DNA of 64,000 nucleotides from Euglena gracilis (taxonomy: Eukaryota), in contig CP154954.1 in assembly GCA_039621445.1 (NCBI GenBank), positions 3,725,715 to 3,789,714 of the forward strand, in the 5' to 3' direction. The position numbers and the translations under genes were made by a program. Each line of letters begins with the position of its first letter. Position 1 is the stretch's first letter. The notes beneath the pieces are model-generated. The model was not told the origin of the DNA and did no database searches. It saw only the letters and a program-made list of their open reading frames with translations. This document shows positions 1,404 through 63,523 of this stretch, piece by piece.

Positions 1404-3143
1404 CGTCCCGAACCCCCCCCCAAAAAAAGGGTTGATAGCAAAGCGCACAAATGCGAATGGCGTCCTGAATGTGCGGTTCACCAGAAATGTCCACACATAT
1501 GACGCGCAAATGGCAACATCGTCTGCATCCTTTCGGTTCTGTTTGAACACGAAACAACCAAACTCGAAAGAAGTGTTGATGGGGGTTTTAAGGAAAATTT
1601 TGGGCCGAAAAAATTTCCGAGCGCTTGGCGCTGAAAATTCAGGTACCCACCTGGCCAAGACTGGGCATTCAATTCGCTCGTGAAAATTTTCCATCGTGAA
1701 ATTTATGGCCGGCAGTTGAAAATTTCACGCATTTTTTCAAAAATTTCACTCGTCCTTAGTATGGAAGACGTATTTCCTTCGTTGTCCCTATTGCACGGAA
1801 CAAAGAGATTTGTGTTCCTCCCGTGCCTGCGACGAGGTTTTCACTTACTTTAACGTGTTTCGGACATACATCTCTCAAGGTTTTGCGGCTGCAGCCAGCC
1901 CCGATTTGGGCCCAGCCAAGCCGCAGCAGCACCCCCCCCCCCCCCCGTTTGAAATCCCAGTTTCTTCCGAAAAGCTTTTTCACCGAAAAACCCTGCACCT
2001 TGCACGGGGGGGGTAACCCACCGCTCACCACGGCACTAAAAATTGGCATCGGGAATACGGAAAGCCTTGGTGGGGGGGTTGGACCCCCCAGGTTGAGGGG
2101 ATTCCCGTACAGACTTCCTGACACTTAGGGGGGGGTGCCAGTTTTCAGAACACACTCCGAGAAGAAAACCCTTTTGACAAAATTTTCAGGAAGACAAAGG
2201 CAGGAAACACAAGCAAAACCAAAACCAATGAAGAAAGTGCGCAATTAACAACAACAGAGTCCTGTGTTTTTTCTGCAAAACACCACAGGACCCTGACAAA
2301 CAGCTGCCAATACCTTCACATCTTCTTCTTCTTTTGTAACTTCTTTGACTAAAATTCACATTCAACACGTGGAACCTGTGAGTGGAAGAATCATGAAACA
2401 CAACACGCATGACGGACAAATCGGACGGAAAAAAAGAACATTGGCAAATCTGGCAAAATTCCAGAATGAAGCCACATGTCCTAAAATTAAAAGCAGACAA
2501 TGCCAGGTGAAAACACACCCAAAACACAGGTCAAAGACAGAGCTGCAGCAAGCGTTCTCTGTGAAATGGAAGCAAAAGTTCCTTCATGTAAAACACCACC
2601 AGAAAACCAGATGGACCGTCAGAAAATGATAGAAAAACAGAACGCACAGTAGAAGACCTGCCACACAAGAGGGTGGCACTCAAAATTGTCACCCAGCGGA
2701 GCGTATTTTGGAAAAAATGGCAAATTTTTGAAAGTGGTCAAGATGCACCAGAAAAGACCAGGAGAACAATTCTTCAAAAGTCACCTTCAGGGGGGCATAC
2801 CTGCTTCGTTCAGTAAATACTGCATCAATATATTCCTTATCCTTCAAATAGTTGGATTCTGAGTTCCAGACAAAGAAAAACAACGAATTTCAAGGGGGAG
2901 AACACACCAGTTTGCTCCCAATTAGGAAGTCCTTCGGTCCGCGATCGCAGCGAATGTTTAAAACGCCTTTCTGGGTGTTGGCCACCATCATCAAGGCCGG
3001 AAATTTCGGAAGCAGTCGGGAGGGAGAAAGGAAGTAGGATTCTCCCATTTTTTCAATGAAAATATTGAAATTTTTGAAAATTTTGAAATTTTCTGAAAAA
3101 ATAAAAAAACGTGAAATTTGCCCAGTCTTGCACCTGGCCCAAC

Positions 3144-3721
3144 CATACTTGCAGTTAGTGCGACCGGAAAAAATGCTTCCGTGCGCCGCGACCACCGCGG
3201 AAAAATTTTTTTTGTAACCGGCAGCGCCGCGGCAAATTTTTTTCTGTGCGCCGCGAATGCCGCGGCGCTGGTTTATGCGTGTGCCGCGACCGCCGCGGAA
3301 AGTTTTGAAGGTTGTGCCGCGACCGCCGCGGCAATTGTCTTTTTAAATTGTGTCCCACATATACTTCCTTTCTGCCCCTTCCCTTGCCTGGCCTCTTTGA
3401 TACTTTCTCGACCATGGCCGAGAAGGGTATTTGGCGGCAGGGAGTGAACTCTTGTGCAAGTGTTCTTGTCAGTTTTCACAGATTAGCTTTCACCATGTCA
3501 AGTGACCTCCACATCAATGTTCTTTACCTCCGGGCAGAAAAATTTTTTTTTGCCGCAACCACCGCGGAAAAATTTTCCCCTTGCGCCGCGACCACCGCGG
3601 CAATAAATTTTGCTTGTGCCGCGACAGCCGCGGCAAAAATCTTTCTGTGCGCCGCGACCACCGCGGAAAAATTTTTTTTGCGCCGCGGCAGGAGCGCCGC
3701 GGCGCACTAACTACAAGTATG
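3144..3721. mobile_element. hAT-like non-autonomous element with GCCGCGACC(A/G)CCGCGG subterminal repeats
   Basis: TIR CATACTTGCAGTTAGTGCG / CGCACTAACTACAAGTATG (18/19). TSD ggcccaac at 3136-3143 and 3722-3729. Confidence 0.88.
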
Positions 3722-5036: not shown

Positions 5037-6124
5037 CAATGGACAGATGCCGGAGTCCTGCATCAGTGCGTCCACGTCCTCGGCTAACGGACTCCCGGCA
5101 GGTTGTTCAACCCCGTTGGCACGGTCGATGGCAATATCCGCGTCAATAGTCCACACCGGTGCCGTTTTCAGGGCGAGTCCACACGGAGGCCGGGGGGGGG
5201 GGGAATTGGGCAAAAACTGTTCAAAAATGTAAAATATTTTTGGAACAACTTCGGGGCTGACGACAGGCTTTTGTACTGTCCACTGTGAGATACTTTGCAG
5301 TCTGGGGGGTTGGGGGAGGGGGAAAAAACAAAACTGAAACACGCACACCCGTTTTGCGCAGGTCGCTGCGGCTTCTTGTTGCTAGGAATATCGATAGCCA
5401 CGTTGAGACTGCAAGGGCGTAGTGAGCTCATAACCAACAGGCACACCTCGTCAAAAAGAAAGTTGCTTGGCGTGCGACGATGAAGACCAGAAAACTTCAT
5501 AGCTGGCACTTCGTTTAAAACGAAGTCAAAAAAAACAACGTTTTTTTAAAAAAAACATTTTTTTTTAAAAAAAACAAAAAAAACGCCATTGAGGGTCCAC
5601 GGCAAAAAAATTTTTGTCTTTAATTTTAGCTTTTTTTGCCCACCCTCGGTCAGAGAAAGACACCAAATTTGGGATGTTTCAAGTTGAAGCATCCCAAAAT
5701 GGCAGAAAAATGCCCTATTTTGACCATTCTTGTTGAAGACAACCAAAAGTAGTGGTTTTCAAGTCATTTGAGCTAAGATTGGTTCACCCTTGCGATCAAA
5801 GGCAAAATTTGGAACTATCGTTTTCCCCTTTGTTTTTTTTGCCGTTTTTTTTGCCCGTTTTTTTTTAATAAAAAACAAAAAAAAACGTTTTTTTTAAAAA
5901 AAACAAAAAAAAACGCCAGCTATGGAAAACTTGGATATTCCCAAAAGCACCAACACCAATGTATCTGTAGAAAAAAGAGCACAAGGAAACACCAACGGTA
6001 CAAAATTTGCGGGGGGATTATTACGCGGGGTTTTATTTAGCGGCCCTGCCGTGTCCAAGGGGTTTAATTGATTTAATAAAACCCCTCGGAAAAAGGGAAC
6101 GCGAGTTTTAGTGTTCCACGGAAT

Positions 6125-6190: not shown

Positions 6191-7800
6191 GTGGGCCGGG
6201 CTGTTTTTTTTTTTGACGTTGTTTTTTTTAATTCTAACAATTTTTTTTTTTAAAAACCAACATTATTACAACAAACATGAAACAAAAAAACTCATTTTTT
6301 TATTTTTAAAAATGTCCATTATTGCTGCCCGTGGTGTCCCCCAAAATATGGCAGTGCTGGCTGGGGGGGGCGGGGGCGGGGCAATGTTTCAAGCCAAACT
6401 GTGGCAGTGGTGTGTGGTTGGGCTGCCTCTGTCACCAAAATGTGGCAGTGCTGGCTGGGTGGGAAGGCCCATCCTTGACGCGGTCCAAAAGCTTAAATTA
6501 CGCGAAATTTGCAATGCTAGACTTTTCGGCTTTCCATTGCGTGCATGTCCCATTAAAATCTATTCAAAATCCAGTCAAATAGGGGTGGGAATGTCCGCAA
6601 ATTCCTTCTTTGGAGTGGATTGTGTGAACTCCTTTGAGCTTGCTATTACCTGGTCTCCAGGGGCCCGGGGGGGGGGGTCCCCAAACAGCCCAAAACTGTT
6701 TTTTTGGCATATTTTAGGTGGCTAACTTGGTTACCAACCCCCCCCTTTATTTGGCCGCCCTCCGGGCGGCACGGACCCCCCTTCTGGCCAATTAGGGGGG
6801 GGGACAATTAGGGGGGGTTACCCCTAACCCCCCCCCCCCCTAAGTGGCCACCTGGACCTAGCAAAGGCCGTAATCTTTCACTTAAGTAATTTTCATGAAA
6901 TTTCACGGCTTTTGTAATTAATTTCGTGGACCATGAAAAGTTCGTTTTTCATTCACTATTAATATTGCCGTCCGGCGAAAAGCGACCTGCTTCAACCCCC
7001 GTTATATGGTAGCCCAAACGAGGTGGTTCCGAAAAAATGTACTACTACTGTGCAGACTGCTGATGCCCACAGAGGAAATACGTCCCTTATAAAACGCGTT
7101 GTGTTAAGCGAACTTGCTGTTTGCCCCACCGAGTTTTGTGTTGTGTCCCAAAAAAAAGGACCCAGAAAACGTTTGGAATCCCATGATGCCAAAAAAAAAT
7201 GCCTCACTTTCTGAGTTTTGGGCTGGCGAACACAATCGAAAGGACGGAAAAAACCTGGAATTGCTGTGCTTGGTAGTTGGTGGTCATGCCACCGGTGGTC
7301 ATGCCACTGGCACAAAAGAAGGGAAAGGGGGGGGCCGAAGGCCGCCTCACAGGCGCAGCCGTGGCCCGTTGTAGGCAACAGGGTTTTTTTTTAAGTAATG
7401 CTCCTTTCCCTCTTTCTCCTTCTCCCCTACCCCCCCACCCTCCCCCACACCCACCACACACCACCCTCCTTACCCAAACATTCTCCGTCCCCCCCCTCCC
7501 CGGCACCGACGTTTTTATAAGGAGGGGTGGGGGGGGGGGTGGAGTGGGAAGGACTTTTGCCCGAAAATGGCCATGAAGTATACAAAAATAGCCCTTTTTC
7601 ACACCCTTTTGGAGCCAGAAAAAGGAAACCCACCCTCCAGCCGCACTCCCCCCCCCCCCCAGGGGTGCGTGGTCCAACACTAAAAAAAACCCTGCCTTGC
7701 CACAAACACCTCGCGGAACAACCTGTCCACGGCATAGAGTCGCATCAGGGGAATTTGTGCCTGGGGGGGGGGGAGGAGCTCGTCGACAAATAATTCTGAC

Positions 7801-8205
7801 TACCATGCCCCCCCCCTTACTGTTCCCGTCCCGTGGCCCCCTTTTGGGTCCATGGGAACAGTAAGGGAGGGGGGAACAGTAAGGGGGGGGGACAAGCTCC
7901 CCCCCCTTACTGTTCCCATGGGCCATCAACCAACCAACCAAATTAGACCCAAAAGGCGACCTAAAATGCCAAAATGAAGCTTTTTTGGTTTACATGCTTG
8001 AAAATTGCACCTCCACAACATCCATTTTGGCGTTAGGTTGGATTTTGGTGGGATGGAAAGCACCTAAAACCGACCAAAAAAATCCCCTTTTTACCTTGTG
8101 TTCCAAGAATCCTTTACAAAAAGTGCTATGACACTGTACTGTTCCCGTCCCCCCAATGGGAACAGTAAGGGGGGGGGAACAGTAAAGGGGGGGGGGGGCA
8201 TGGTA
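7801..8205. mobile_element. Tc1/mariner-like MITE (TA|CCATGCCCCCCC)
   Basis: TACCATGCCCCCCC...GGGGGGGCATGGTA, with internal inverted TTACTGTTCCC/GGGAACAGTAA motifs. Confidence 0.7.
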
Positions 8206-8679
8206 ATACAAAACACACTGGTGGGCTTCTTTTTAAGACCCCCGGCCCCCCCCCCCCGAAAATCGGGCCCGTCAAAGGCAATTCTCAAAAATTTTCCGAG
8301 CCTCACCGAGGGCTCCGGACTTGAAAGAAGACTGCCACCGACTCACAAGAAAAAATACACAGGGCCGTACTAGGCACGTGACTCCATGGGCGAGGTTCAG
8401 CTTTGGGCGATTGTTCACGTGCCTCCCCAGCATGGACCAGACCCGCTCCACGGACGCGGTAGTGCAAGGCAGGCAGCTCACCAGCAACGCCAGGGGTTTT
8501 TTGGGGTGCCTTTGAACATAAAGTGAACAAACAGTAAATCCAATTTCATAAAAGAAACCCTAGGAGTGATGGATTTCCAGCAAAAAGTGAACAAATGATA
8601 AACAGAGCAGAATTAAAAAAACCCTGCCCCTGGCGAACTTGGCAAGGGGTTGGTCCATAAACATGGCCCACCAGCAATC

Positions 8680-8927
8680 GGGGTCATGCTTGTGCTTACA
8701 TACGGGGGGTATGGGAGGGAAGGGAAGGGGTTAAGGGGGTGTCTGACCGCCCCCCCTCCCGACACGGAGGGCTTTCATTTAAAATCGAACCATCAAATGC
8801 TCTTTTTATTACAATATTTTTGAAATCTTTTTTGGGCAATCTTTGAGGGAAAAACACCTTCCCATCAATCAAACCTGGGGGGGGGGCGATGCAGGTGGGT
8901 GTGCCCCGACTAAGCACAAGCCTGATT
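8680..8927 (-). other. Nonconventional intron = MITE (8685-8924), TSD 7/8
   Basis: ACCCCAAT / ACCCCGAT flank CAGGCTTGTGCTTA...TAAGCACAAGCATG (13/14 TIR). Removal gives HP|DCWW. Confidence 0.85.
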
Positions 8928-9044
8928 GGGGTGCTGCAGGTTGGACAGCAGCGGGACCCCCGCCGCGTAGACGTCCCTCAGCTCCAGGAAGTTCACGATG
9001 TCGGGTAATGTGGGAGGCTTTGTCCCAGCCGGCATGAGCGCGTT

Positions 9045-9178
9045 CCAGCCAGGGGTTTTTTTAAGACCGGGGGGGGAGGGGGGTTGTTGTGTGTTAATGT
9101 CCGAGTGACTAATGTGAGTCTGTTGCCACACTCCATGTATGAAGCGCCATGGGATCCAACTTAAAAAAATCCCTGGTT
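9045..9178 (-). other. Nonconventional intron = MITE (9050-9175) with perfect 8-bp TSD
   Basis: TSD gttccagc at 9042-9049 and 9176-9183. TIRs CAGGGGTTTTTTTAAG / CTTAAAAAAATCCCTG. Removing AAC+element+GCTGG gives in-frame ..ADGW|NALMP.. Confidence 0.9.
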
Positions 9179-9255
9179 CCAGCCGTCGGCCATGACGAAG
9201 GCGATGGTGTCCCTTTTTCGTTGCGTACCCAGCAGCTCGCCTCTGAAGCGGGGGT

Positions 9256-9353
9256 GCAGCCAGGCTGTTTTTTAACAAACCCGGGGGAGGGGGGGAGGGC
9301 ATTCCTGTGAAAATAGGTCATTTTGGGTCACAGGACTAAAACACAACCTGGGT
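9256..9353 (-). other. Nonconventional intron = MITE (9261-9350), TSD 7/8
   Basis: GCTGGACC / GCTGCACC flank CAGGTTGTGTTTTA...TTAAAAAACAGCCTG. Removal restores the conserved YLLDPRF motif. Confidence 0.85.
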
Positions 9354-9405
9354 CCAGCAGGTAGCTAGCTGGCTGCTGCCCACGGGCGGAAGAAGAGGGG
9401 GTCCC

Positions 9406-9518
9406 CCAGGCATACAATTTTTTCCAACCCCGGGGGGGGGGCACTCCACTTTTCTAAAAAACCAGTCAGTCACTTTTTTTTGGGAGGCCAGGGACAGTGC
9501 TTAAAAAAATGTCTGCCC
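9406..9518 (-). other. Nonconventional intron, MITE-derived, TSD 7/8
   Basis: CCTGCGGG / CCTGGGGG flank CAGACATTTTTTT...AAAAAATTGTATG. Removal gives in-frame DLRDPLFF. Confidence 0.75.
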
Positions 9519-10750
9519 GCAGGTCGGCAGCCGCGGCAACTTGCCGCGCCTGCCTTGCTTGTAGGTCACCTTGTAGCAGCTCCAAACTGCCGCGCAGCAC
9601 CCCCAGAGCCGCTTCTGGTTCTGAGTTAAAAAAAAAAACACCGTCGACCAGAAAAAACCCTGATTTGTATGTACTTGTGGATGGCGAACCCGGTATTCGT
9701 CTGCGGGGACTCCAGACTGTGGAGGAAGGCCGATACGTGGCCCAGGGTCTGCGCCATGCCCTGGAACTCCATCCAGACACCGGGAGCCCAAATCCAGCCC
9801 ATCTGACGGAAGTCGTCATTGGCCCAGGACTCTCTGCGTAACTTCAGCATCGTCAGCTCGATGGGCTCCCTGTTGGCGATCAGGGACCGAAGACACTCTG
9901 CTCTGGATGCCCATCTCGTTGACACCGGCTGATGGAGCATCGTGAACCGCTTCTGTCTGAGACAGACCCCTTTTTCTTGCAAATCTGATTTTTAAACGAA
10001 ATGCAGACATAGAGTTGTCCAACTCTGCGTTTTTCTTACGATGGGTTGCGTGAGTGACCAAAGACCAATTCTTGACAAATTTTTAAAACGAAATGCAGAC
10101 ACAGAATGACCGACTCTGGATCTCAAAAAAAAGCCTGCTCCGGCTGGCCGGGCGTTGTTCAGTTTGTCGACCTCCTCGCGATACGTTGCCTGCGCGTAGT
10201 GCGCATTTCTCAGCAAGGCCTCGATGCTCATCGCCTTGGACATCAGATCCGGCCAGACGCTGTCCCTTTGAGGCCCACGCTGGCCAAGGGACACACCAGA
10301 ACCAGGGCTGAACATCAGAGTGGGGGGACCCCACCTCACACACAGACCATTAACACTTTAATGAAACAGCGCCGGCCTGGTTCAGGTCCTTCATCAGCAA
10401 CTCCGCCGAGTGCGCCAGGCAGTTCTGCTTGATGAAAGCGAACAGGGTCCAGCTGCACGGTGGGGGGGGGTGGGAGTGGCCATGAACCGCAACCAAAATG
10501 CCTGGCCACTTTAGGAGGCGTGAAACCATGGACTGCACCCGATGGTTGAAATTACTTCAGACCCAAACTCCTCGAACACGGGAACAAATACCAAAATACA
10601 CGAACAAATTCCACAGACACCACCAGTGTGCCCCCATTTGTGCATTGTTCAGCCCTGGACGGCAGCCGGTCAGCACCCGCCTGAACGTTTGCCCCGTTGT
10701 CCGCCAGGACTGCCACGATTTTGGCACCTGTGCTGTTGGCAATCTCAGTT

Positions 10751-10819
10751 GCCGCCAGGAGTGCACAGGAGCCACGGCGCCTCAAACGCAATGCCGACGG
10801 TTTGACTGCACCCCTGATC
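10751..10819 (-). other. Nonconventional intron (69 nt, in frame, no TSD left)
   Basis: T|GATCAGGGGTGCA...TGCACTCCTGGCGGC|A matches the euglenid consensus. It is hidden inside ORF 10552..11049. Confidence 0.8.
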
Positions 10820-11631
10820 ATGGCGGCTTGGATCCAGGCATGTATGTTTTCTGCAGTCTGGCGCACGTCTTGCTGGTCCACCGTCCACAGCCACACGTTT
10901 TCCGGCTGCTCCAAGTCCAGCAGCGTCATCCCCAGGGTCTCCATGTGCATATGGTCGGACCAGCCGTCAATGCAAATGGCGATGGAACGCACCTTGGACA
11001 ACTTCTCCTGCAGCCTGCCACGGGTTTTGGTGTACAACGCATCGACCACATGCTACATTTCATAGGACGCAAACCACGTCGAACACATTTGCATTGGGCT
11101 GGGGTCCGTGGGAATCTGCACTGAAAATGAAATGATAAGCCTGGTTCAGCCGACGCTCCAATGTGTGGCGGGACGGTGAAACAAAATCCCCTCTGAGCGC
11201 CTTCACAAACTCCTTCCACTGCGGAGTGTCGGGACACATTTCCATTTGCCCGCAAGCTTTTGGGAAAAAGGGAAACGTGTGTGAGGTTGTTGAACGGAAT
11301 GCCGCTGCTCGCCTGCCACATTGACAGCAACTCCTCCGCCCGCACCTGCATGTGCGTGGGGAACCTTCGGTCCGCCACTCTGTCCAAGGTAAGCTGCTGC
11401 TGGTCAGCGTTTGCTTCACCTGAGCAGGCCGCAGGAAGCACCTGGGCTTGCGCGCCAAGCAACAGCTGGCGTTTGTGTCTCCTGTCGTAGTGCTCTTTGC
11501 ACCGCGTGGCGTTCGCTGCCACTGTCCAACCACAGTGTCTGCACTTCACTGTCTTCACCTTCCCGTCTACATCTGTACGAATTGGCTGGTACTGTTGCCA
11601 TAGTGTGGCGGACACGGGCACGGGCATCTCC

Positions 11632-11661
11632 CTGAAGAAAAATATCGAGAGGGGGAGGAAA
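11632..11661 (-). promoter_or_regulatory. Polypyrimidine tract + AG acceptor 4 nt upstream of the transposase ATG (probable spliced-leader trans-splice site)
   Basis: Minus strand reads tttcctccccctctcgatatttttcttcAG|ggagATG. Euglenozoa trans-splice a leader onto such acceptors. Confidence 0.6.
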
Positions 11662-11924
11662 GTAGGACTCGCGGTTGGTCGCGAGACAATGGAAACTTTT
11701 TACTTTTCAATTTTCTGAGATTTCATGAAAATATGGAAAAATGCAAGAAAACCGTGCAAATTTCACTTTACTGAAATTTCAGGCCTTTTGAAAAGTTTTG
11801 GCCATTGCTACCTGGACCCCGTCCTTTACAGTCGCGAACCCCCTAAAACACCCGAATAAAGACATTTTCCCTTAAAAACGTGTTCAGCCCGCCAAATGCC
11901 TGCCCTGAAATTCGTGGTCATGAG

Positions 11925-12079
11925 CACGTTTTCAATGAGGGCATTTGTGGCAATGACACGTTTTCAGTGAAGGCATCCGGGTTCAGGCACGTTTTCAATG
12001 AGGGCATTTGTGTCAATGACACGTTTTCAGTGAAGGCATCCGGGTTCAGGCACGTTTTCAGTGAGGGCATCTGTGGCAA
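11925..12079. repeat. 63-bp tandem repeat, ~2.4 copies
   Basis: Units start with CACGTTTTCA at 11925, 11988 and 12051. Confidence 0.85.
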
Positions 12080-12262: not shown

Positions 12263-12720
12263 TCACGGCACACGACAGGCTTTACACAAAAAAGAGCCAT
12301 AATTTGGTGGCCGCCGCAAATCTTGGCAATGAAAATGATATGCCAAACCGCAGGCGTCACAGACAACATTGTTCGAACGATTCCCTGAAACGAACAAAGT
12401 TCCCGAATGCTGCTCACGTTGAGCCACACATTGTTCGATGACGCTCGCCTCATCGAACAACAGGCTGGGTTCCAGCTCCCATCCCGTCCAGGCAACAAAG
12501 AAAGCATCCAGCTCAGGATAAGAGGCTTGCCGATGTTGACACAGTTTGGCGAACCCCAAACAGTTGGCAACAGCAGCAAGCTCTGCACCCACGGAGCCGG
12601 ACTTTTTCTTTGTGTTGCCCTGTGCCAGCAAGGTGCCATGAAGGGGGTCAACCTTCGGCTTCTTGGCACCTTGCTGGTATACCGCGAGAGCAGCCAGGAA
12701 CAGTTCCGTCCTAGGGGGAG
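12263..12720 (-). CDS. ORF fragment ending in a PHD-like zinc finger
   Basis: VVCDACGLAYHFHCQDLRRPPNYGSFLCKAC matches the last six PHD ligands. The first pair is degenerate. The upstream part of ORF 12263..13117 runs through repeats. Confidence 0.55.
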
Positions 12721-14551
12721 GTGGCAAAAGACCATTCACAAAGTTTGCCGTGCGTTTGGCCATATTGGCAGGGCCATAGGCCATATTCGGGGGCCCCTGG
12801 CTGAACACGTTTTCAGGCTGAAATCTGTGCTCAGCCACAATTTGTGTATAGAAATGAGTAACCCCCCCCCCCCTAATTGGCCACCTGGGCTCTGGCCAAT
12901 TAGGGGGGGGGGGACAAATAGAGGGGGGGTTGGTAACTAGGAAGGGTCCATGTTTCACCAAGGGAAACATTCCTGAAATTTTCATGAAATATTTCAGGTG
13001 AAATATTTCAATATTTCTTTCACTGCAATGCTGAATAATTTGATGTCTTAGAATCTTGTTGTCCGAAAAAAATTGCCAGGAGCTCCTACACCAAACAACC
13101 GACTTTCCGCATTCCACATCATACTTTTTTCCACGTCTAGCCAGTTTTTATTTTGCACTTTATTTCAAAAACGTTTGCAAATACCACCAATTTGTTTGCA
13201 TTTTATCTCAAAAGGTTTGCACCTTATCCTAAATTATTTGCCTCTGTTCTGACAATTTTTGCATTCGGATTGGGTTTTTTTGCACAGTTGTCCTTTGAAA
13301 CTTCAATGGAGTGGATCTTTTTTCCATTAGTGCAACGTAAGACTCCAAAAATCACCAAATCGGCATCTTGAGGACATGTTCAAAACCGATCTAGTTGCAG
13401 AAATTTTGTCTAGGTTTGGCATCCAGTTCGGCCTCCGACCCCCCCCCCCCCCCGAAGTGGTCAATCCAGGTCGCACAATCTGGATGATCCATTTTTTGGG
13501 GGAGTTTGGCCCCCCCCCCTCTTGCTTACCCCTTGCCACTGGAACCCCCCTGCCTTCCCCTGTGCAGTTCAGTTCCCAAAGTGAAGGGGGGAGGGTCCAA
13601 CACCCCCTCCCCCTACGTCCAAGCCCCCCCTCGGGGGGGATCTTTTCATTTTTACAACATTTTTTTTGCGGTGCAACACGGTGCTTCTGTCTTTCTGTCC
13701 CCTAATTCTGCCATAGCAGGAAAAAGAGCGGGCAAACTAGAGATGTGATGCCAGGGATTTACAATGGCAAATTTATGGGATGCATGCTGAAAGAATGGGA
13801 AGAAAGTTGGTGTCTTTGACAACATAAATATTTGTCAACTGTGTGCTGTTGAAGATTTCATTGAAATGAAACCCGCTCCACTTGATTCTTTGCACGTGCT
13901 GCAATTGAATGCTGTCGAACAAGAGTGGTTGGCCAAAATCTCTCCCCCCCCAGTACCATTGCCATCTTTGCATTGTACAACATGGGGTGAATTTCGATTG
14001 GTTGCATGGTGTCCCTGAAGCCGGAGATGTGTATGTTTGCAAACATTGCCAGAAATCTCTAATTGGGCCAAGCCCAATTCGACCACCACGATCTGTTGCC
14101 AGGGAAAACCTTTTGGCATAAGGTCAGGGTTGCCTGAATTGACAGCGCCGGAGGAACGCCTCATTGCCCCGCAAACAAATTCCTAATTACCGTCCGAAAA
14201 CTGGCGTCTCCCCCCCGCGTCCCCCCCCGCGTCCCCCCCCGCGTCCCCCCCGCGTCCCACTTTGGAACCAAAATTTTGTTCTCGAGACAGCCAAATCTAG
14301 AAGGCTGATTCCTAATTTCAGGCAAATTTGAGGTTGGTGATTCCTAATTTGGTGTGGGTGATCCCTAACTTTTGGTGGGTGATTCCTAATTTGGGTTGGG
14401 TTTGTCCTAATTTGTTGTGGTAGAATCCTAATTTGGCTAAAAATTTCTCGCAACAAATTCCTAATTTCACCGTCCGAAAAATGGCGTCTCCCCCCCGCGT
14501 CCCCCCCCGCGTCCCCCCCCGCGTCCCCCCCGCGTCCCAGACACCCCCATA

Positions 14552-29688: not shown

Positions 29689-29966
29689 CCCCCCCCCCTG
29701 CGGGCCAGGAGGGGGGGGTGGGGGGGACACCCCCCCACCTAAACCATGTACGCCCTCCTTATATCGAACCCTGGTGTAGACCTACCCTCGGGAATCACAC
29801 CAACCACACAAGGTGAGTGTATGTCCCTACAGCACTGGAATTACACCAGAGTTGCTCACCCAGCCACGCGGAGCAACACAAGAGCACTGGTGTAAGGGGT
29901 CCCTGGCCACTCACCACCAGGCTTTTTGTTTACCGACCGGGGAGGGAGGGGGTGGGTCAGTGCTAC

Positions 29967-32621: not shown

Positions 32622-32900
32622 CAGGGATTTTTTTAAGTTTGGACCCCCGGGGGGGGGAGGGGGGGGGTAGGGTGGGTAGGTCCGGCCGAGCCCCCCCCCC
32701 CCCCCCCCCGGGGTCCCCCCGGAGGGGGGTGGGATATACTTTTCGGCGCCGCAGGCGCCGAAAAAATTCTATTTTTAGCACTTTTCGCGATTTTTCGGCC
32801 ATTTTTTTTGTGGGTCCCCCGGACCCCCCCCAGGGGGGGGGGCCCCCCCAGGGGTGGGTGGGTGAGGGGGGGACCCCCCCCGGTCTTAAAAAAACCCCTG
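32622..32900. mobile_element. hAT-like MITE, longer relative of intron 9045-9178
   Basis: TSD gatgggat at 32614-32621 and 32901-32908. Ends CAGGGATTTTTTTAAGTT / CCCCGGTCTTAAAAAAACCCCTG are the reverse complement of the intron element's ends. Confidence 0.92.
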
Positions 32901-58800: not shown

Positions 58801-61800
58801 CGCTTCCTGTCCCTCGCCACCTGGCAGCACCCCCGCTCCAGTGTCCTGTCCAGGCTTTTCTCTTTTTTTTTTATACAGGAAGTGCGCACAGTTTTCACAG
58901 GTGAGCGCTATGGGCATAGGGGTTTTTTTAGTCGTGGACCCCCGGGGGGGGTAGGGTGGGTGGGTCTGGCCAAGCCCCCCCCCCCGGGGGGTCCCCCTGG
59001 AGGGGGGTGGGATATACGTTTCGGCGCCGAAGGCGCCGAAAAAGTGCTATTTTTAGCACTTTTCGCGATTTTCGGCCATTTTTTGTTGGTCCCCCGGGAC
59101 CCCGCCCCCCCGGGGGGCCCACAGGGGGGGGGTGGGTTGGGGGGACCCCCAGGGTTCGATATAAGGAGGGCGTACATGGTTTAGGTGGGGGGGTGTCCCC
59201 CCTCCCCCCCCCCCCCCTCCTGGCCCGCAGGGTGGTCCGGACCACCCCCCCCCCCCACCTGCAAGGGGGGTCCGGACCGACCCTCGGGGGCAAAAATTGA
59301 CCCCCCCAAAAAGGGTCAATTTTTTCCTCCGGCGCTTCGCGCCGAAAATTTTTTGCATTTTTGGCACATTTTTGCCCAAAAAGTGCCCAAAATGGCACTT
59401 TTGGGTCGTTTTGGGGGTCCAAACCTTTTGCGGGTTTTGAGGGGGTCAAAAATTTTCGGCCACCCTGACCGCGCACCTGTTTAGGTGGGGGGGGGTGTCC
59501 CCCCCCCCCCCCCCCCCCCCTCCCTGGGCCGCAGGGGGACTCCCCCCCCCCCCCCCCACCTGTCCTTATATCGAACCCTGGGGACCCCCCCGGTCTTAAA
59601 GAAACCCCTGTATGGGCAGCCAGGGGGGTGGGGCACTTTAATTCTAAAGCACACCCCCGGCGCGGAATATGCCAGGGGCCCGAAAATATCCATTTTCAAA
59701 GGAAATTTGCCTGGGTCGGCAGGGACCGGGGTTCAAAACAGACTCCGGGGGGGGGGGGGCCTGCTCTTGGCAGGCACCCCATCGCAAAAGGCACACCCCC
59801 TCCCCCCCAGGTTGGTAAAAAGGAAGCCTGGTCCTGTCCCTCGTCTTCTTCACCCTGTGCTTCCTCCTTGCGCTCATCCTGCCCGGTTGGGTGATGTTGA
59901 ACTTCATCCTGGCGGTGTACCTCACCCTCGTTGTCGGTCTGGCATGCTGTGCCTCGAGGTCATCCATATGGATCGGCTTCTTCCCAAAGCCAGTCTGCAG
60001 TGATGATGGCTCCATGCTGTGTTTTTCTTCCGCAGTTTTCGCTCGCTATCCGATTATTCGGTGCTTCACTTATGCCTCCCATTTGGATGGCGTGCGGCTA
60101 CGGGCAAAGCCTTTCGTGCGACCCTATGTGGGTGTGTATGTCCCCACCTTCCACACCCACAACACGCGTGAGGGGGCACACACAAACACACATGCAAGCA
60201 TGCACACAGGGACATTGCTAGTTCTTATTTGTTGTGCCGGGGAGCCATTTTTTGGTGGTTTTTTTTGGAATGATGACCCGAGGGAGGGGATGGTAGCGAT
60301 TTGTAATGGGACGATCCATTTTCCATTCATTCAAATGGACAAATTTTAAACCACATTTTTACTTTAAACTGCCTGGCACTTTCTCGAATCATGGTCACTA
60401 TCCTGACCCCCATCCCAGCCAAATTTTAAACCACATTTTTACTTTAAACTGCCTGGCACTTTCTCGAATCATGGTCACTATCCTGACCCCCATCCCAGCC
60501 CCCCCCCCCCCGTTTACCTGGATTCAAGCTCTCTTGTTCGCCTTTCTTGCGTATTGGGTTTCCTGACGTTCCCTTCTTCCTCCGCACCCCGTCAGGCCGA
60601 CTTGTCGTGACGGTCCACTGTGCCCACGGTTTCCGAAGCTCAGACTACATATCCACCGACCCTTACGTTGTGGTGATGGTTGGCGAACAAATGGACCGGG
60701 TTCAGGGTGGCTTCCACAAAACACACGACACACACACACACACACACACACCCACACGCACATTGATCCACACAGGCTTTACAAGCACAGACACACAACC
60801 TCATATAGCCCAGACACAGCCCACACAGATGACTGACAGGCTCGCTCATGGACTTTTTCTGTGCTTTCCCCCTTATTCAATAAATCTGTTTTCATTCTCA
60901 TTTTGCACGTTTTCATTTTGCAATTGTTTTTATGTTGTTTTTTTTGCATTCAACTGGCGCACGATGACACTCTGCTGGTACAAAGTCCAAGATGAAGGAT
61001 ATGCACCCCCTGTTTGAGGAGGTGTGATGCAATAGGTACTTGGCAGCATGGCAGCATGATGGAACAGTGCTCTGTGTGTGTGGGCAAGGTTGGATGCACC
61101 GTGCCGAACGTTGTTTCAGACCATGGAGTTCATCGTGTTCAGTCCCAACACACGTGTCCAAGTATTCCTGTGGGATTGGGACCGGTCTTCATCAGACGAC
61201 TTCCTTGGGGAGGGGCAGTTCCAGACCACAGGTGTGCGCAATGAACTCCTCCAGTGATGTGGCTCATAACCCCAATATGTGATGGAGAATTGGGGGAGCT
61301 TCGCGTTCAGTTGTGGTGGTCAGGATCTGTCCTCAGAGGTCTTTTCCTCCCGCCTTACATATTCCATGCTGGAGGGACACCTTTTGCCCAAGATCTATAG
61401 CGAGCATACATGTGAAATAAGGCACTCAAGGGGCAAAGCCTAACCTTCCCAAAAACATTCACCTTCAAATAGCCGGCAAATTAGGCATGACCTCCTTGGG
61501 GAAGTGCGGAACCCAAGGTGTCCCTCAACGTCCCTTCCTCTTCCTCCCTCCTCGGTGTTCTCCGAGGGAGTGTGTGAGGAGTCAATTTTTCAGCCTAAGA
61601 TTTCAAGTGCCCGTGGTCAAGGCGTGGCGTTCCAGATGCGGAAGGAGGGGACTGACCTCTTGAAAAACAGGCAAAGGGCTCTGATGTTTGTTGGGGCCAC
61701 TCGTTTGGGGGCCCAATTTGGATTTTTTTTTTGCAGATTCAAGTTTTTTTCAGAATCAGCCGGTGTTTGTTCATTCCAGCAGGGACTTTTTAAGGTTGGT

Positions 61801-62306
61801 GACGCAGGGAGGATGGCTTAGGGTTTCAATTTCGGGTGTCAAATATTGGGCTCCAATTTTTTCGGTATTTTTGCTCCAAAAATACAGAAATTCTTTTTCT
61901 GGCGGATACCCACTTGATCCGACGGGGGTTCCCCATCAGAGGGTGGGTGGGTGGGTTGGTGTCCCCCCCCAGTCTAAAAAAAAAACCCTGTTTCTGTTCA
62001 GTGCCTTTTTGTTGGGCAACCTCCACCGTCGGGGGTTGCTGAGTATGGCAAACCGGACCCACAGGGAACGCGGGATTTTGGGACCTAAAATCTCTTTGGG
62101 AACGCGGGTCACATCCGAAAGGTGTGACCCGAATGACCAGCACGTTGTATTTCACACCCCACCCTGTCTACACCCTCCCCCTGACCAGGGGCCCCCGGCG
62201 GCACCGCCAGCCGGGGCAATGTCTGGGTGGACATCCGCCCCCGCCCGGCCTGCTTTGCCGACTACAAGCGGTTCGTGTCCGGCCGCGTGCGGGTCAGCTG
62301 GCGGCT
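55862..62306 (+). CDS. Multi-exon membrane protein: MCTP/PRT_C-like transmembrane region followed by a C2 domain (both ends unresolved)
   Basis: Exons ~55862-56025, 56269-56337, 56906-56947, 57201-~57240, ~58757-58847, 59836-~59932, ~60503-60699, 60980-61021, 61120-61231, 62189-~62306. Peptides: LLLFDNPWKSTLVF, IIDRFLSLATWQHPRSSVLSLVFFTLCFLLALILP, then C2 motifs GRLVVTVHCAHG..STDPYVVV..RTKSKMKDMHPLFEETMEF..VQVFLWDWDRSSSDDFLGE..VWVDI..SGRVRVSW. A possible last exon ends at the 62922 stop. Confidence 0.8.
58917..59610. mobile_element. hAT-like MITE (same family as 32622-32900), nested inside the intron
   Basis: TSD tatgggca at 58909-58916 and 59611-59618. Ends TAGGGGTTTTTTTA / TAAAGAAACCCCTG. 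Confidence 0.9.
59150..59580. mobile_element. hAT-like MITE, CAGGGTTCGATATAAGG family
   Basis: 17-bp perfect TIR. TSD gggacccc at 59142-59149 and 59581-59588. Confidence 0.92.
61022..61119 (+). other. Conventional GT-AG intron in the C2 domain
   Basis: GAG|GTGTGA...TTGTTTCAG|ACC joins PLFEE|TMEF in frame. Confidence 0.8.
61232..62188 (+). other. Conventional GT-AG intron
   Basis: CAG|GTGTGC...CCCCCTGACCAG|GG. The phase-1 join continues the C2 domain. Confidence 0.7.
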
Positions 62307-62939: not shown

Positions 62940-63523
62940 CAGGGTTCGATATAAGGAGGGCATATGGGGTTTAGGTAGGGGGTGTCCCCCCCCCCTGGAC
63001 TGCAGGGGGGAGAAAATTGCACCGTGCAATTTTTGCAATTTTGTGCAATTAATTGCACATGGCCTGGGATATTTTGTTTTGGAAAATATCATTTTTTGAT
63101 GCAATTGAGAACTTGCCGTGTTTTTTTTTTTGCTGGGAAATTGATGTACGTAGTGAAATTTCCGTTCAAAGGCTGTTTATTGTTGGTTTACTCAGTGTGC
63201 AAACCTTATCTTGAGTCCCCTGCCCAGGTGTCTTTGATACTTTCTCAACCAGGACTGGAGGGGGTCTGGTCCACCCCCCGGGGTCCGTACCGCCCCCGGG
63301 GGGATACCTGGAACCCGCAAAAGGTAAATTTTTTTCCGGCGCTTTGCACCGATTTTTTTTGCATTTTTGACAAATTCGTTTTGGGGGTTAAATCTTTCGG
63401 CCCGGCGCTTCGCACTGGGCTGACAATCCGTCACCTGGGCCACGCAATTGTTTAGGTGGGGGGGTGTCCCCCCCTTGACCAGGGGGTCCGGACCCCCCCC
63501 ACCTGCCCTTATATCGAAGCCTG
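62940..63523. mobile_element. hAT-like MITE, CAGGGTTCGATATAAGG family
   Basis: TIR 16/17. TSD gggggccc / gggagccc. Confidence 0.85.

Follow-up and report, generated by a model that had tools for sequence, protein, structure and literature searches.

Introduction

The nonconventional introns of euglenids carry CAG at positions +4 to +6, CTG at −8 to −6, a terminal stem and repeats at their junctions, and, whereas most introners are removed by the spliceosome at sites co-opted from a duplication, they are thought to leave the RNA by another route and to be released as circles (PMC11282704). In Euglena gracilis, they make up 16,151 of the 28,337 mapped introns (57%), with the consensus CCAGG at +3 to +7 and CCTG at −9 to −6 (PMC11170887). 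The DNA considered here is a 64,000-nucleotide (nt) stretch of E. gracilis contig CP154954.1 (hereafter the window), whose minus strand carries, at 11627–8272, what is very probably a real BED-finger transposase gene of the hAT superfamily, with 597 codons in 13 exons and 12 nonconventional introns that are best read as hAT-type miniature transposons. Target-site duplications of 8 bp and (C/T)AG termini are hallmarks of this superfamily, which includes maize Ac, an element whose gene has a few conventional introns. An earlier note on the same DNA had described the gene as a hAT transposase gene colonised by transposon-like introns; its observation is confirmed and its interpretation is partly supported.

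An origin of euglenid nonconventional introns from elements resembling MITEs (miniature inverted-repeat transposable elements) was proposed in 2014, when no transposable element had been identified in euglenid genomes (PMC3935182), and was repeated in 2024 and 2025 with the superfamily unnamed and the origin still called unclear (PMC11282704, PMC12501133). The introner papers cited here (PMC11282704, PMC7789003) tie no mobilising transposase to introners. The term “hAT” has 0 occurrences in the text of PMC11282704 as well as in that of PMC12501133, and a full-text literature search for a link between hAT and Euglena introns, covering open texts without supplements, found none and turned up a Merlin transposon paper instead; this negative is limited by the supplementary intron tables of PMC11170887 and PMC12501133, which might list the gene or duplication lengths. 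The present gene offers a concrete candidate with which the origin and spread of these introns can be studied.

A Transposase Gene in Thirteen Exons

No single reading frame is open across 8272–11627. The coding pieces are spread over three minus-strand frames, as seen in stop-to-stop open reading frames (ORFs), which present in order a CxxC...HxxxxH finger, DGWSD, ADNGAN, CLAH, TRW, LDPRF and a WW...SVERVWS tail. When 12 segments (1562 nt in total) are taken out, 13 exons join into a coding sequence of 1794 nt specifying 597 amino acids (aa), with a single, terminal stop; the joined frame is open only once all 12 segments are removed. In 12 of 12 cases, the frame change between neighbouring exons corresponds to an element bounded by inverted repeats plus 8 nt. 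The gene that the earlier note had placed at 8272–11627 is thereby borne out, as is its statement that D, D, CxxH, RW and E are all present, every motif that it named being found in the joined frame. The gene and its motifs are located as follows.

8272–11627, minus strand: hAT-superfamily transposase gene (ATG at 11627–11625, TGA at 8274–8272), from the joined frame, the colinearity of homologues over junctions 1 to 7, and the motifs
11627–11283, 11230–11147, 11043–10820, 10750–10661, 10437–10380, 10261–10141 and 9957–9666, minus strand: exons 1 to 7
9598–9519, 9401–9354, 9255–9179, 9044–8928, 8679–8636 and 8485–8272, minus strand: exons 8 to 13
11543–11532, minus strand: CxxC motif, in the joined frame
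11492–11475, minus strand: HxxxxH motif, in the joined frame
10968–10954, minus strand: DGWSD motif, in the joined frame
10704–10687, minus strand: ADNGAN motif, in the joined frame
10421–10410, minus strand: CLAH (CxxH) motif, in the joined frame
9919–9911, minus strand: TRW motif, in the joined frame
8454–8434, minus strand: SVERVWS motif, in the joined frame

A weak inverted repeat (14 nt, 79%) at 8219–8337, similar to element ends of the TTTTTAAG type, spans the stop codon; the final ~20 codons and the stop of the gene may derive from a thirteenth insertion.

Membership of the hAT Superfamily

An exhaustive HMMER search with exons 3 and 4 read through intron 3 (128 aa) identified 19 proteins at E ≤ 1e-3; homologues are numbered below with the prefix P. 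Word-indexed protein searches yielded no match, whether exons 3 and 4 were compared with longer proteins or exon 7 and the C-terminal read-through with proteins of similar length. From sequence and fold comparisons, we assign the gene to the hAT superfamily, as the earlier note had done, and predict transposase activity for its product. A family profile of 20 sequences, which includes window exons 3 and 4, matches four different PDB sequences of Hermes transposase (E 1.9e-5 to 3.2e-5), and the alignment places IDLWTD, VTDRGAN and NCSSH of Hermes opposite DGW.D,.DN.AN and C.AH of the family, that is, the first two aspartates (including D180) and the CxxH motif. In the AlphaFold model of homologue P0016, only residues 1–100 are confident (block pLDDT 83–96), and these show an RNase-H-like pattern of strands and helices; Foldseek with this model returned Hermes for all of the top 10 matches (E 2.7e-6 to 1.3e-4, identity 19–24%). 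Both the profile and the fold evidence for Hermes pertain to the family and to P0016, not to the joined window product. A stronger-looking profile match, to a designed TIM barrel, was rejected as a repeat artefact, since no stretch of it passes alone.

Homologue P0004 passes the Pfam profile DUF659 (35.7 bits; cut-off 34.7), and five other homologues match it below the cut-off; P0013 reaches 16.8 bits on zf-BED, below the cut-off of 20.6. The TRW motif occurs in P0016 at the place aligned with TRW of the window, the W being matched within the family and not to Hermes. At its termini, the joined product has the CxxC...HxxxxH finger (N-terminal) and the S-x-E-R-x-x-S dimerisation motif (C-terminal). 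The last exon found no match in the PDB; in a protein atlas, its best score was 0.89, below the guide value of 0.9, and 22% of the proteins in the rank-4 cluster carry PF05699, no more than a lead.

Introns with the Features of the Nonconventional Euglenid Type

The 12 intervening sequences are listed below in the order of transcription, with the evidence for each, which for some includes a minimum free energy (MFE) structure that closes the ends.

11231–11282, minus strand: intron 1, 52 nt; terminal stem of 10 bp without CAG; ends closed in the MFE structure (z −3.26)
11044–11146, minus strand: intron 2, 103 nt; 95-nt element (CAGGCT...AGCATG) plus 8 nt; MFE structure closes the ends
10751–10819, minus strand: intron 3, 69 nt (in frame); element of 61 nt, termini pairing 10/10, CAG and CTG in register
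10438–10660, minus strand: intron 4, 223 nt; P0016, P0003, P0004 and P0006 colinear across it
10262–10379, minus strand: intron 5, 118 nt; favoured by homology, P0016, P0003 and P0004 having four residues between KD and WP
9958–10140, minus strand: intron 6, 183 nt; internal direct repeat of ~55 nt; P0016, P0003 and P0006 colinear across it
9599–9665, minus strand: intron 7, 67 nt; P0016 aligns over the junction; MFE structure closes the ends (z −2.40)
9402–9518, minus strand: intron 8, 117 nt; based on frame logic and CAG/CTG ends only
9256–9353, minus strand: intron 9, 98 nt; 90-nt element plus 8 nt; duplication GCTGGACC/GCTGCACC (7/8); MFE structure closes the ends (z −3.59)
9045–9178, minus strand: intron 10, 134 nt; 126-nt element (CAGGGATTTTTTTAAG...CTTAAAAAAACCCCTG) plus 8 nt; perfect duplication GCTGGAAC
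8680–8927, minus strand: intron 11, 248 nt; 240-nt element (CAGGCTTGTGCTTA...TAAGCACAAGCATG) plus 8 nt; duplication ACCCCAAT/ACCCCGAT (7/8)
8486–8635, minus strand: intron 12, 150 nt; frame logic; cuts the C-terminal hAT dimerisation domain

For intron 1, the junction backed by a transcript (see below) is that of the 52-nt version (element plus 5 nt); an alternative of 55 nt (11229–11283) is also in frame. An 85-nt version of intron 5 (10298–10382), in frame and with better CAG/CTG ends, was dropped, the homologues showing four residues between KD and WP. Removal of intron 9 restores the LDPRF motif, and removal of introns 11 and 12 rebuilds the dimerisation motif.

GT–AG or GC–AG borders can be drawn within ±9 nt for none of the 12 introns. 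CAG stands at +4 to +6 in 10 of them and CTG at −8 to −6 in eight, and 99 of the 120 outermost element positions (ten per intron) pair, against 45.3 ± 5.9 (maximum 64) in 2000 random sets of the same lengths. Among the nine introns of up to 150 nt, which were folded, the MFE structure closes both ends in seven, leaving 0–2 nt unpaired at the 5′ end and 1–4 nt at the 3′ end; two-domain folds result for introns 5 and 8, whose ends the MFE structure does not close. The MFE z-scores of the nine range from −0.25 to −3.59.

The earlier note had stressed that 12 nonconventional splicing events are needed for expression. It is correct that 12 segments with inverted-repeat ends block the frame; the need itself is less exceptional than was implied, because 57% of the introns of E. 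gracilis are of that type, and a gene dependent on nonconventional splicing is normal for this organism. A set of 12 out of 12, as against a genome-wide share of 57%, would arise with a probability of about 0.001 (0.57^12) if introns were independent, and agrees with a transposon-derived gene in which ancestral spliceosomal introns were never present.

Exon 5, which contains the CxxH motif, is flanked by the two arms of a perfect inverted repeat of 13 nt (CCAGGGCTGAACA/TGTTCAGCCCTGG), one at the 5′ end of intron 4 (10646–10658) and the other within intron 5 (10302–10314). Removing 10660–10298 would take out 363 nt, in frame, and an isoform without exon 5, catalytically altered, is conceivable.

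Transcript and Homologue Support for the Junctions

The best match of the HMMER search, P0001, is the EukProt entry Euglena gracilis EG_transcript_15882, with 95% identity over all 128 residues; to judge by this identity, it derives from another copy or strain. The match places the source of the window in E. gracilis or a very close relative; Amoebophrya, other dinoflagellates and tunicates were rejected as sources, given this match and the 3–5 nt repeats of Amoebophrya. The P0001 protein is continuous over introns 1 and 2 at the predicted codons, and the junction at intron 2 has exactly the +3/−5 register (3 nt before CAG, 5 nt past the 3′ repeat). The removal of introns 1 and 2 is hence observed in a 95% identical transcript, while that of introns 3 to 12 at this locus is inferred.

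Homologues are colinear with the model over junctions 1 to 7. The alignment of the joined model with P0016 (E 9e-61) spans model aa 160–423 with 13 gap columns and covers junctions 3 to 7; that with P0003 spans model aa 27–325 without large gaps and covers junctions 1 to 6. The 23 residues that intron 3 would encode are missing in 17 of the 17 other homologues that span the site. Junctions 8 to 12 are placed on the basis of the frame, the structure of the ends and the hAT motifs that are rebuilt.

The frames of the database relatives stop in clusters near model residues 224–236, 257–262 and 322–325; among P0002–P0030, seven end within 33 residues past CxxH, and several end at the position of intron 3. 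This pattern suggests that the broken-off relatives are family members with unremoved introns at positions partly shared and partly different; the breaks would be explained most simply by introns that were unremoved or unrecognised. Four metagenome loci (L001–L004; 64–66% G+C), matched by P0001 only (35% over 46 residues), were dropped as unrelated.

A Probable Transposon Origin of the Introns

Introns 9, 10 and 11 combine terminal inverted repeats with a recognisable 8-bp duplication (7, 8 and 7 of 8 bases), the combination by which MITEs are defined and which the other nine introns do not show. Both ends of intron 10 match, at 92–97%, an element outside the gene:

32622–32900, strand not assigned: second copy of the intron-10 family, 279 bp, with a perfect 8-bp duplication GATGGGAT

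Within the 64 kb, the ends of intron 10 are the only ones that recur, with further partial matches at 59585–59610, 61962–61983 and 29917–29952. A strict scan of the window for CAG...CTG elements with an 8-bp duplication gave six rows, corresponding to five distinct elements, while 30 shuffles gave none in 27 instances and one in three. When the duplication length was varied, 15 elements with a perfect 8-bp duplication were found, against 0 in each of five shuffles; seven of the 15 “duplications” are palindromic and are probably hairpin extensions. As for the “transposon-like” character that the earlier note gave to the introns, the inverted-repeat ends hold for 12 of 12, and at least intron 10 belongs to a CAG-ended family with 8-bp duplications, while a duplication is seen in three of the 12 only; for the nine others, a transposon origin is presumed.

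Further elements, whose 8-bp duplications are perfect or nearly so, lie at 1656–3130, 3144–3721, 5498–5924, 58917–59610 and 62940–63523. Their termini start with CAA, CAT, CAG or TAG, one end pair being TAGGGG/CAGGGG, and 58917–59610 contains another element nested at 59150–59580. These suggest several hAT-like non-autonomous families in the region.

A Candidate Gene-Bearing Element

The scan for 8-bp duplications with matching termini gave one clean candidate around the gene, 6859–11810 (4952 bp), flanked by a perfect 8-bp duplication CCTGGACC.

6851–6874, plus strand: candidate left end, duplication CCTGGACC (6851–6858) followed by the terminus TAGCAAAGGCCGTAAT
11795–11818, minus strand: candidate right end, terminus TAGCAATGGCCAAAAC (minus strand, from 11810) and duplication CCTGGACC (plus strand, 11811–11818)

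The two termini match at 12 of 16 positions and start with TAG, and ~60 nt of subterminal inverted similarity lie inside the candidate ends. Such end pairs number eight in the whole window, against ~0.85 per shuffle, and are mostly of low complexity; bases 1 to 5 of the left duplication also form part of a neighbouring palindromic repeat. The gene may be part of an element of 4952 bp with ends at 6859 and 11810, which we regard as a candidate only. Palindromic elements of long G and C runs (TGGCCAATTAGGGGGGGGG..., GGGAACAGTAAGGGGGGGG...) occur at 6785–6850, 12862–12915, 7800–7920 and 8140–8200, one of them adjoining the candidate left end.

The candidate termini TAGCAAAGGCC/TAGCAATGGCC (at 6859 and 11810) share with the intronic CAGGG...TTTTTTTAAG only the A and G at positions 2 and 3; beyond these positions, the ends TAGCAA[A/T]GGCC are unlike the intronic CAGGG/CAGGC...TTTTTTT. 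In the window, the TAGCAA end has no mismatch-free second copy; the subterminal motifs of the candidate do not recur in the intronic elements, and none of the 18 candidates for ends around the whole gene has termini of the CAG type. The candidate duplication CCTGGACC is one mismatch away from GCTGGACC of intron 9 and two from the duplication of intron 10, the background frequency of such a site being 0.0009, which hints at a target preference in common. With 24 family proteins as queries, tblastn matched the window at 9659–11612 only, so that this is the sole transposase-like gene found in it.

A 63-bp unit is tandemly repeated in ~2.5 copies (11924–12079; 93–96% identity) immediately upstream of the gene, beyond the candidate element. 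Of 10 neighbouring long ORFs scanned, the only matches were sub-threshold ones to PHD and C2H2 profiles; the PHD-finger match (21.8 bits; cut-off 24) lies in an open frame of 294 codons at 12266–13147 on the minus strand.

A Proposed Mechanism for the Gain and Removal of the Introns

We propose that each intron is a short element (47–240 nt) with inverted-repeat termini, mostly CAG...CTG, and that hAT-type miniature transposons of this kind would have inserted into the coding sequence at differing times: three recently, with the duplication still visible, and nine earlier, with the duplication eroded and the frame kept. In the pre-mRNA, the ends would pair into a stem that draws the splice sites together, and excision would remove the element together with 8 nt, a length equal to that of one hAT target-site duplication, and the mRNA would thereby regain the sequence that preceded the insertion. 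Insertions would be tolerated because the nonconventional splicing of the host removes them. The enzyme, with its catalytic D, D and E, CxxH and W, would cut and paste hAT ends and so produce the 8-bp duplications.

The sum 3 + 5 = 8 would link the published geometry of these introns to the length of the hAT duplication, a link not found in the literature cited here on these introns. Its extension to all of them, by which euglenid nonconventional introns as a class are hAT miniature transposons, their excision (3 nt before CAG and 5 nt after CTG) mirrors the duplication at the RNA level, and this BED-hAT lineage or a close relative spreads them, is put forward as an improbable conjecture. A bolder version, in which a hAT-derived protein aids the recognition of intron ends in RNA, has no support here.

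Alternative Explanations

A number of results weigh against the reading of the locus as a hAT transposase gene with 12 introns of transposon origin. Among the Pfam domains named by the earlier note, zf-BED (exon 1 included) and DUF659 are not matched by the single exons of the window, the latter being passed by homologue P0004 as stated above; Dimer_Tnp_hAT (PF05699), the one Pfam profile to which any single exon responds, is matched by the last exon at 17.9–19.4 bits (E 9e-4 to 2.6e-3), below the cut-off of 21.4, over profile positions 37/42–64 of 84, the match beginning at the first residues of this exon, just after intron 12, which divides the domain. The 3′ ends of introns 4, 5, 7 and 12 were picked among alternatives when the frame or the homologue alignment was known. 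Neither homologue nor transcript covers junctions 8 to 12 among the 30 fetched database relatives, none of which is full-length, all breaking off before model aa 424. In the nine introns other than 9, 10 and 11, 1–4 of 8 duplication bases agree, which is about chance. Finally, P0001 keeps the 69-nt intron 3, in frame, and leaves the model exactly at the 5′ border of intron 4, with no continuation into exon 5. Because intron 3 is kept and the departure falls at the start of intron 4, P0001 looks like partly processed RNA; the sole transcript seen is incompletely or differently processed and would therefore not encode the full enzyme.

These facts can be taken to mean that the gene is a dead transposon copy, its 12 segments being simple insertions without productive splicing and the copy giving no protein. 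The retention of intron 3 in P0001, the stop of the latter short of exon 5, and the lack of a full-length relative among those fetched fit such a copy, and removal of an insertion together with one duplication restores the frame by construction, spliced or not. Yet 1794 nt of exon sequence are free of stops and frameshifts despite nine old insertions, P0001 lacks introns 1 and 2, with precise junctions, and the intron ends agree with the consensus for those that E. gracilis does splice; we consider a dead copy very unlikely. The same transcript could indicate fewer than 12 true introns, intron 3 being an exonised insertion, as its in-frame retention would suggest, and intron 5 using the nearer 3′ site with a gain of 11 codons, both versions of intron 5 keeping the frame. 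That is doubtful for intron 3: the 17 homologues spanning the site all lack the 23 residues, which in the P0016 model would be inserted inside the predicted helix 49–65, after the third strand of the RNase-H-like fold; the termini pair at 10 of 10 positions with CAG and CTG in register; and intron 4 is also unremoved in P0001, as in a partly processed RNA. We hold the variant with fewer introns to be rather unlikely as a whole.

Other readings accept the gene and differ about its role. It could be a domesticated, hAT-derived host gene that no longer transposes, is retained for some function in the cell and has acquired introns as other Euglena genes have. The frame is intact through at least nine old insertions with eroded duplications and would therefore have been under long purifying selection; transcription is seen for a copy with 95% identity, the relatives form 19 clusters with identities as low as 26%, which points to an old family, and the termini at 6859 and 11810 are candidates only, one of eight such pairs in the window. 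On the other hand, the gene is bracketed by a perfect 8-bp duplication, termini that start with TAG and match at 12 of 16 positions, and ~60 nt of subterminal similarity, and one or more additional near-identical copies, among them that from which P0001 derives, together with many divergent relatives on short contigs, are more like a transposon family than a single-copy host gene. That all catalytic residues are kept is a weak point in this respect; domesticated hATs often retain them. Domestication is, on balance, unlikely, though the leading one of these alternatives along with the class-wide conjecture above. Alternatively, the transposase lineage itself could move the CAG-ended elements with 8-bp duplications that form nonconventional introns, those of its own gene included. 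For such a mobiliser speak the 8-bp duplication and (C/T)AG termini, hallmarks of hAT elements, the position of the gene as the only transposase-like one found in the window, the enrichment of elements with perfect 8-bp duplications (15 versus 0 in five shuffles, seven of them palindromic), and the closeness of CCTGGACC to the duplications of introns 9 and 10. Against it stand the candidate termini, which differ from the intronic ones beyond positions 2 and 3, the lack in the window of a mismatch-free second TAGCAA end, the subterminal motifs missing from the intronic elements, and other hAT lineages that may exist elsewhere in the genome. The link that the earlier note had drawn between this gene and the mobility of the introns is not supported, the TAGCAA ends being unlike the CAGGG termini, a dissimilarity that the earlier note had named as refuting the link, and themselves candidates only; the idea is plausible in kind (8 bp, CAG) and, for this lineage, improbable. 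None of these alternatives is preferred over a hAT transposase gene interrupted by 12 nonconventional introns of miniature transposon origin.

An apparently intact hAT gene in the vicinity of CAG-ended elements with 8-bp duplications, inside and outside genes, supplies a defined enzyme and defined DNA termini for examination, and the early break-off of all relatives in the protein collections may show why such genes miss annotation. If the mobiliser link is wrong, the locus is left as an ordinary Euglena member, rich in introns, of a common transposase family.

Comparison with Known Systems

Hermes of the housefly (structures 2BW3, 4D1Q and 8EDG) is the best fold match: the RNase-H-like core, the first two aspartates and CxxH align, while identity is as low as 19–24% and the exons of the window stay below the Pfam cut-offs. 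With hAT transposases in general, the gene shares the N-terminal CxxC...HxxxxH finger, the C-terminal S-x-E-R-x-x-S motif and a candidate 8-bp duplication; unlike the gene of Ac, it is broken by 12 introns without GT–AG borders, and its termini are candidates only.

The introns resemble euglenid nonconventional introns, as characterised by Milanowski et al. (2014; PMC3935182), by Gao et al. (2024; PMC11170887) and in PNAS (2025; PMC12501133), in the absence of GT–AG, the terminal stem, the positions of CAG and CTG, and the direct repeats that blur the borders. They differ from the usual ones in that they interrupt a transposase gene belonging to the same superfamily for which the features that they bear, 8-bp duplications and CAG ends, are hallmarks, in that they constitute the complete intron set of the gene (12 of 12, versus 57% in E. 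gracilis at large), and in that they are short, 52–248 nt, against a published mean of ~520 nt (PMC11170887).

Like the introners and MITE-derived introns of Micromonas, Aureococcus, Amoebophrya, Polarella and Fritillaria (PMC11282704), they appear to be non-autonomous elements with terminal inverted repeats and target duplications that reside in genes and are removed from RNA; the direct repeats of Amoebophrya introners measure 3–5 nt (PMC7789003), as compared to 8 here. Maize Ds, a non-autonomous hAT element, is reported to be removed from the transcript when it resides in a coding region (Giroux et al. 1994), reportedly by spliceosomal and imprecise splicing; for the Euglena gene, by contrast, we deduce that the element and 8 nt are removed precisely.

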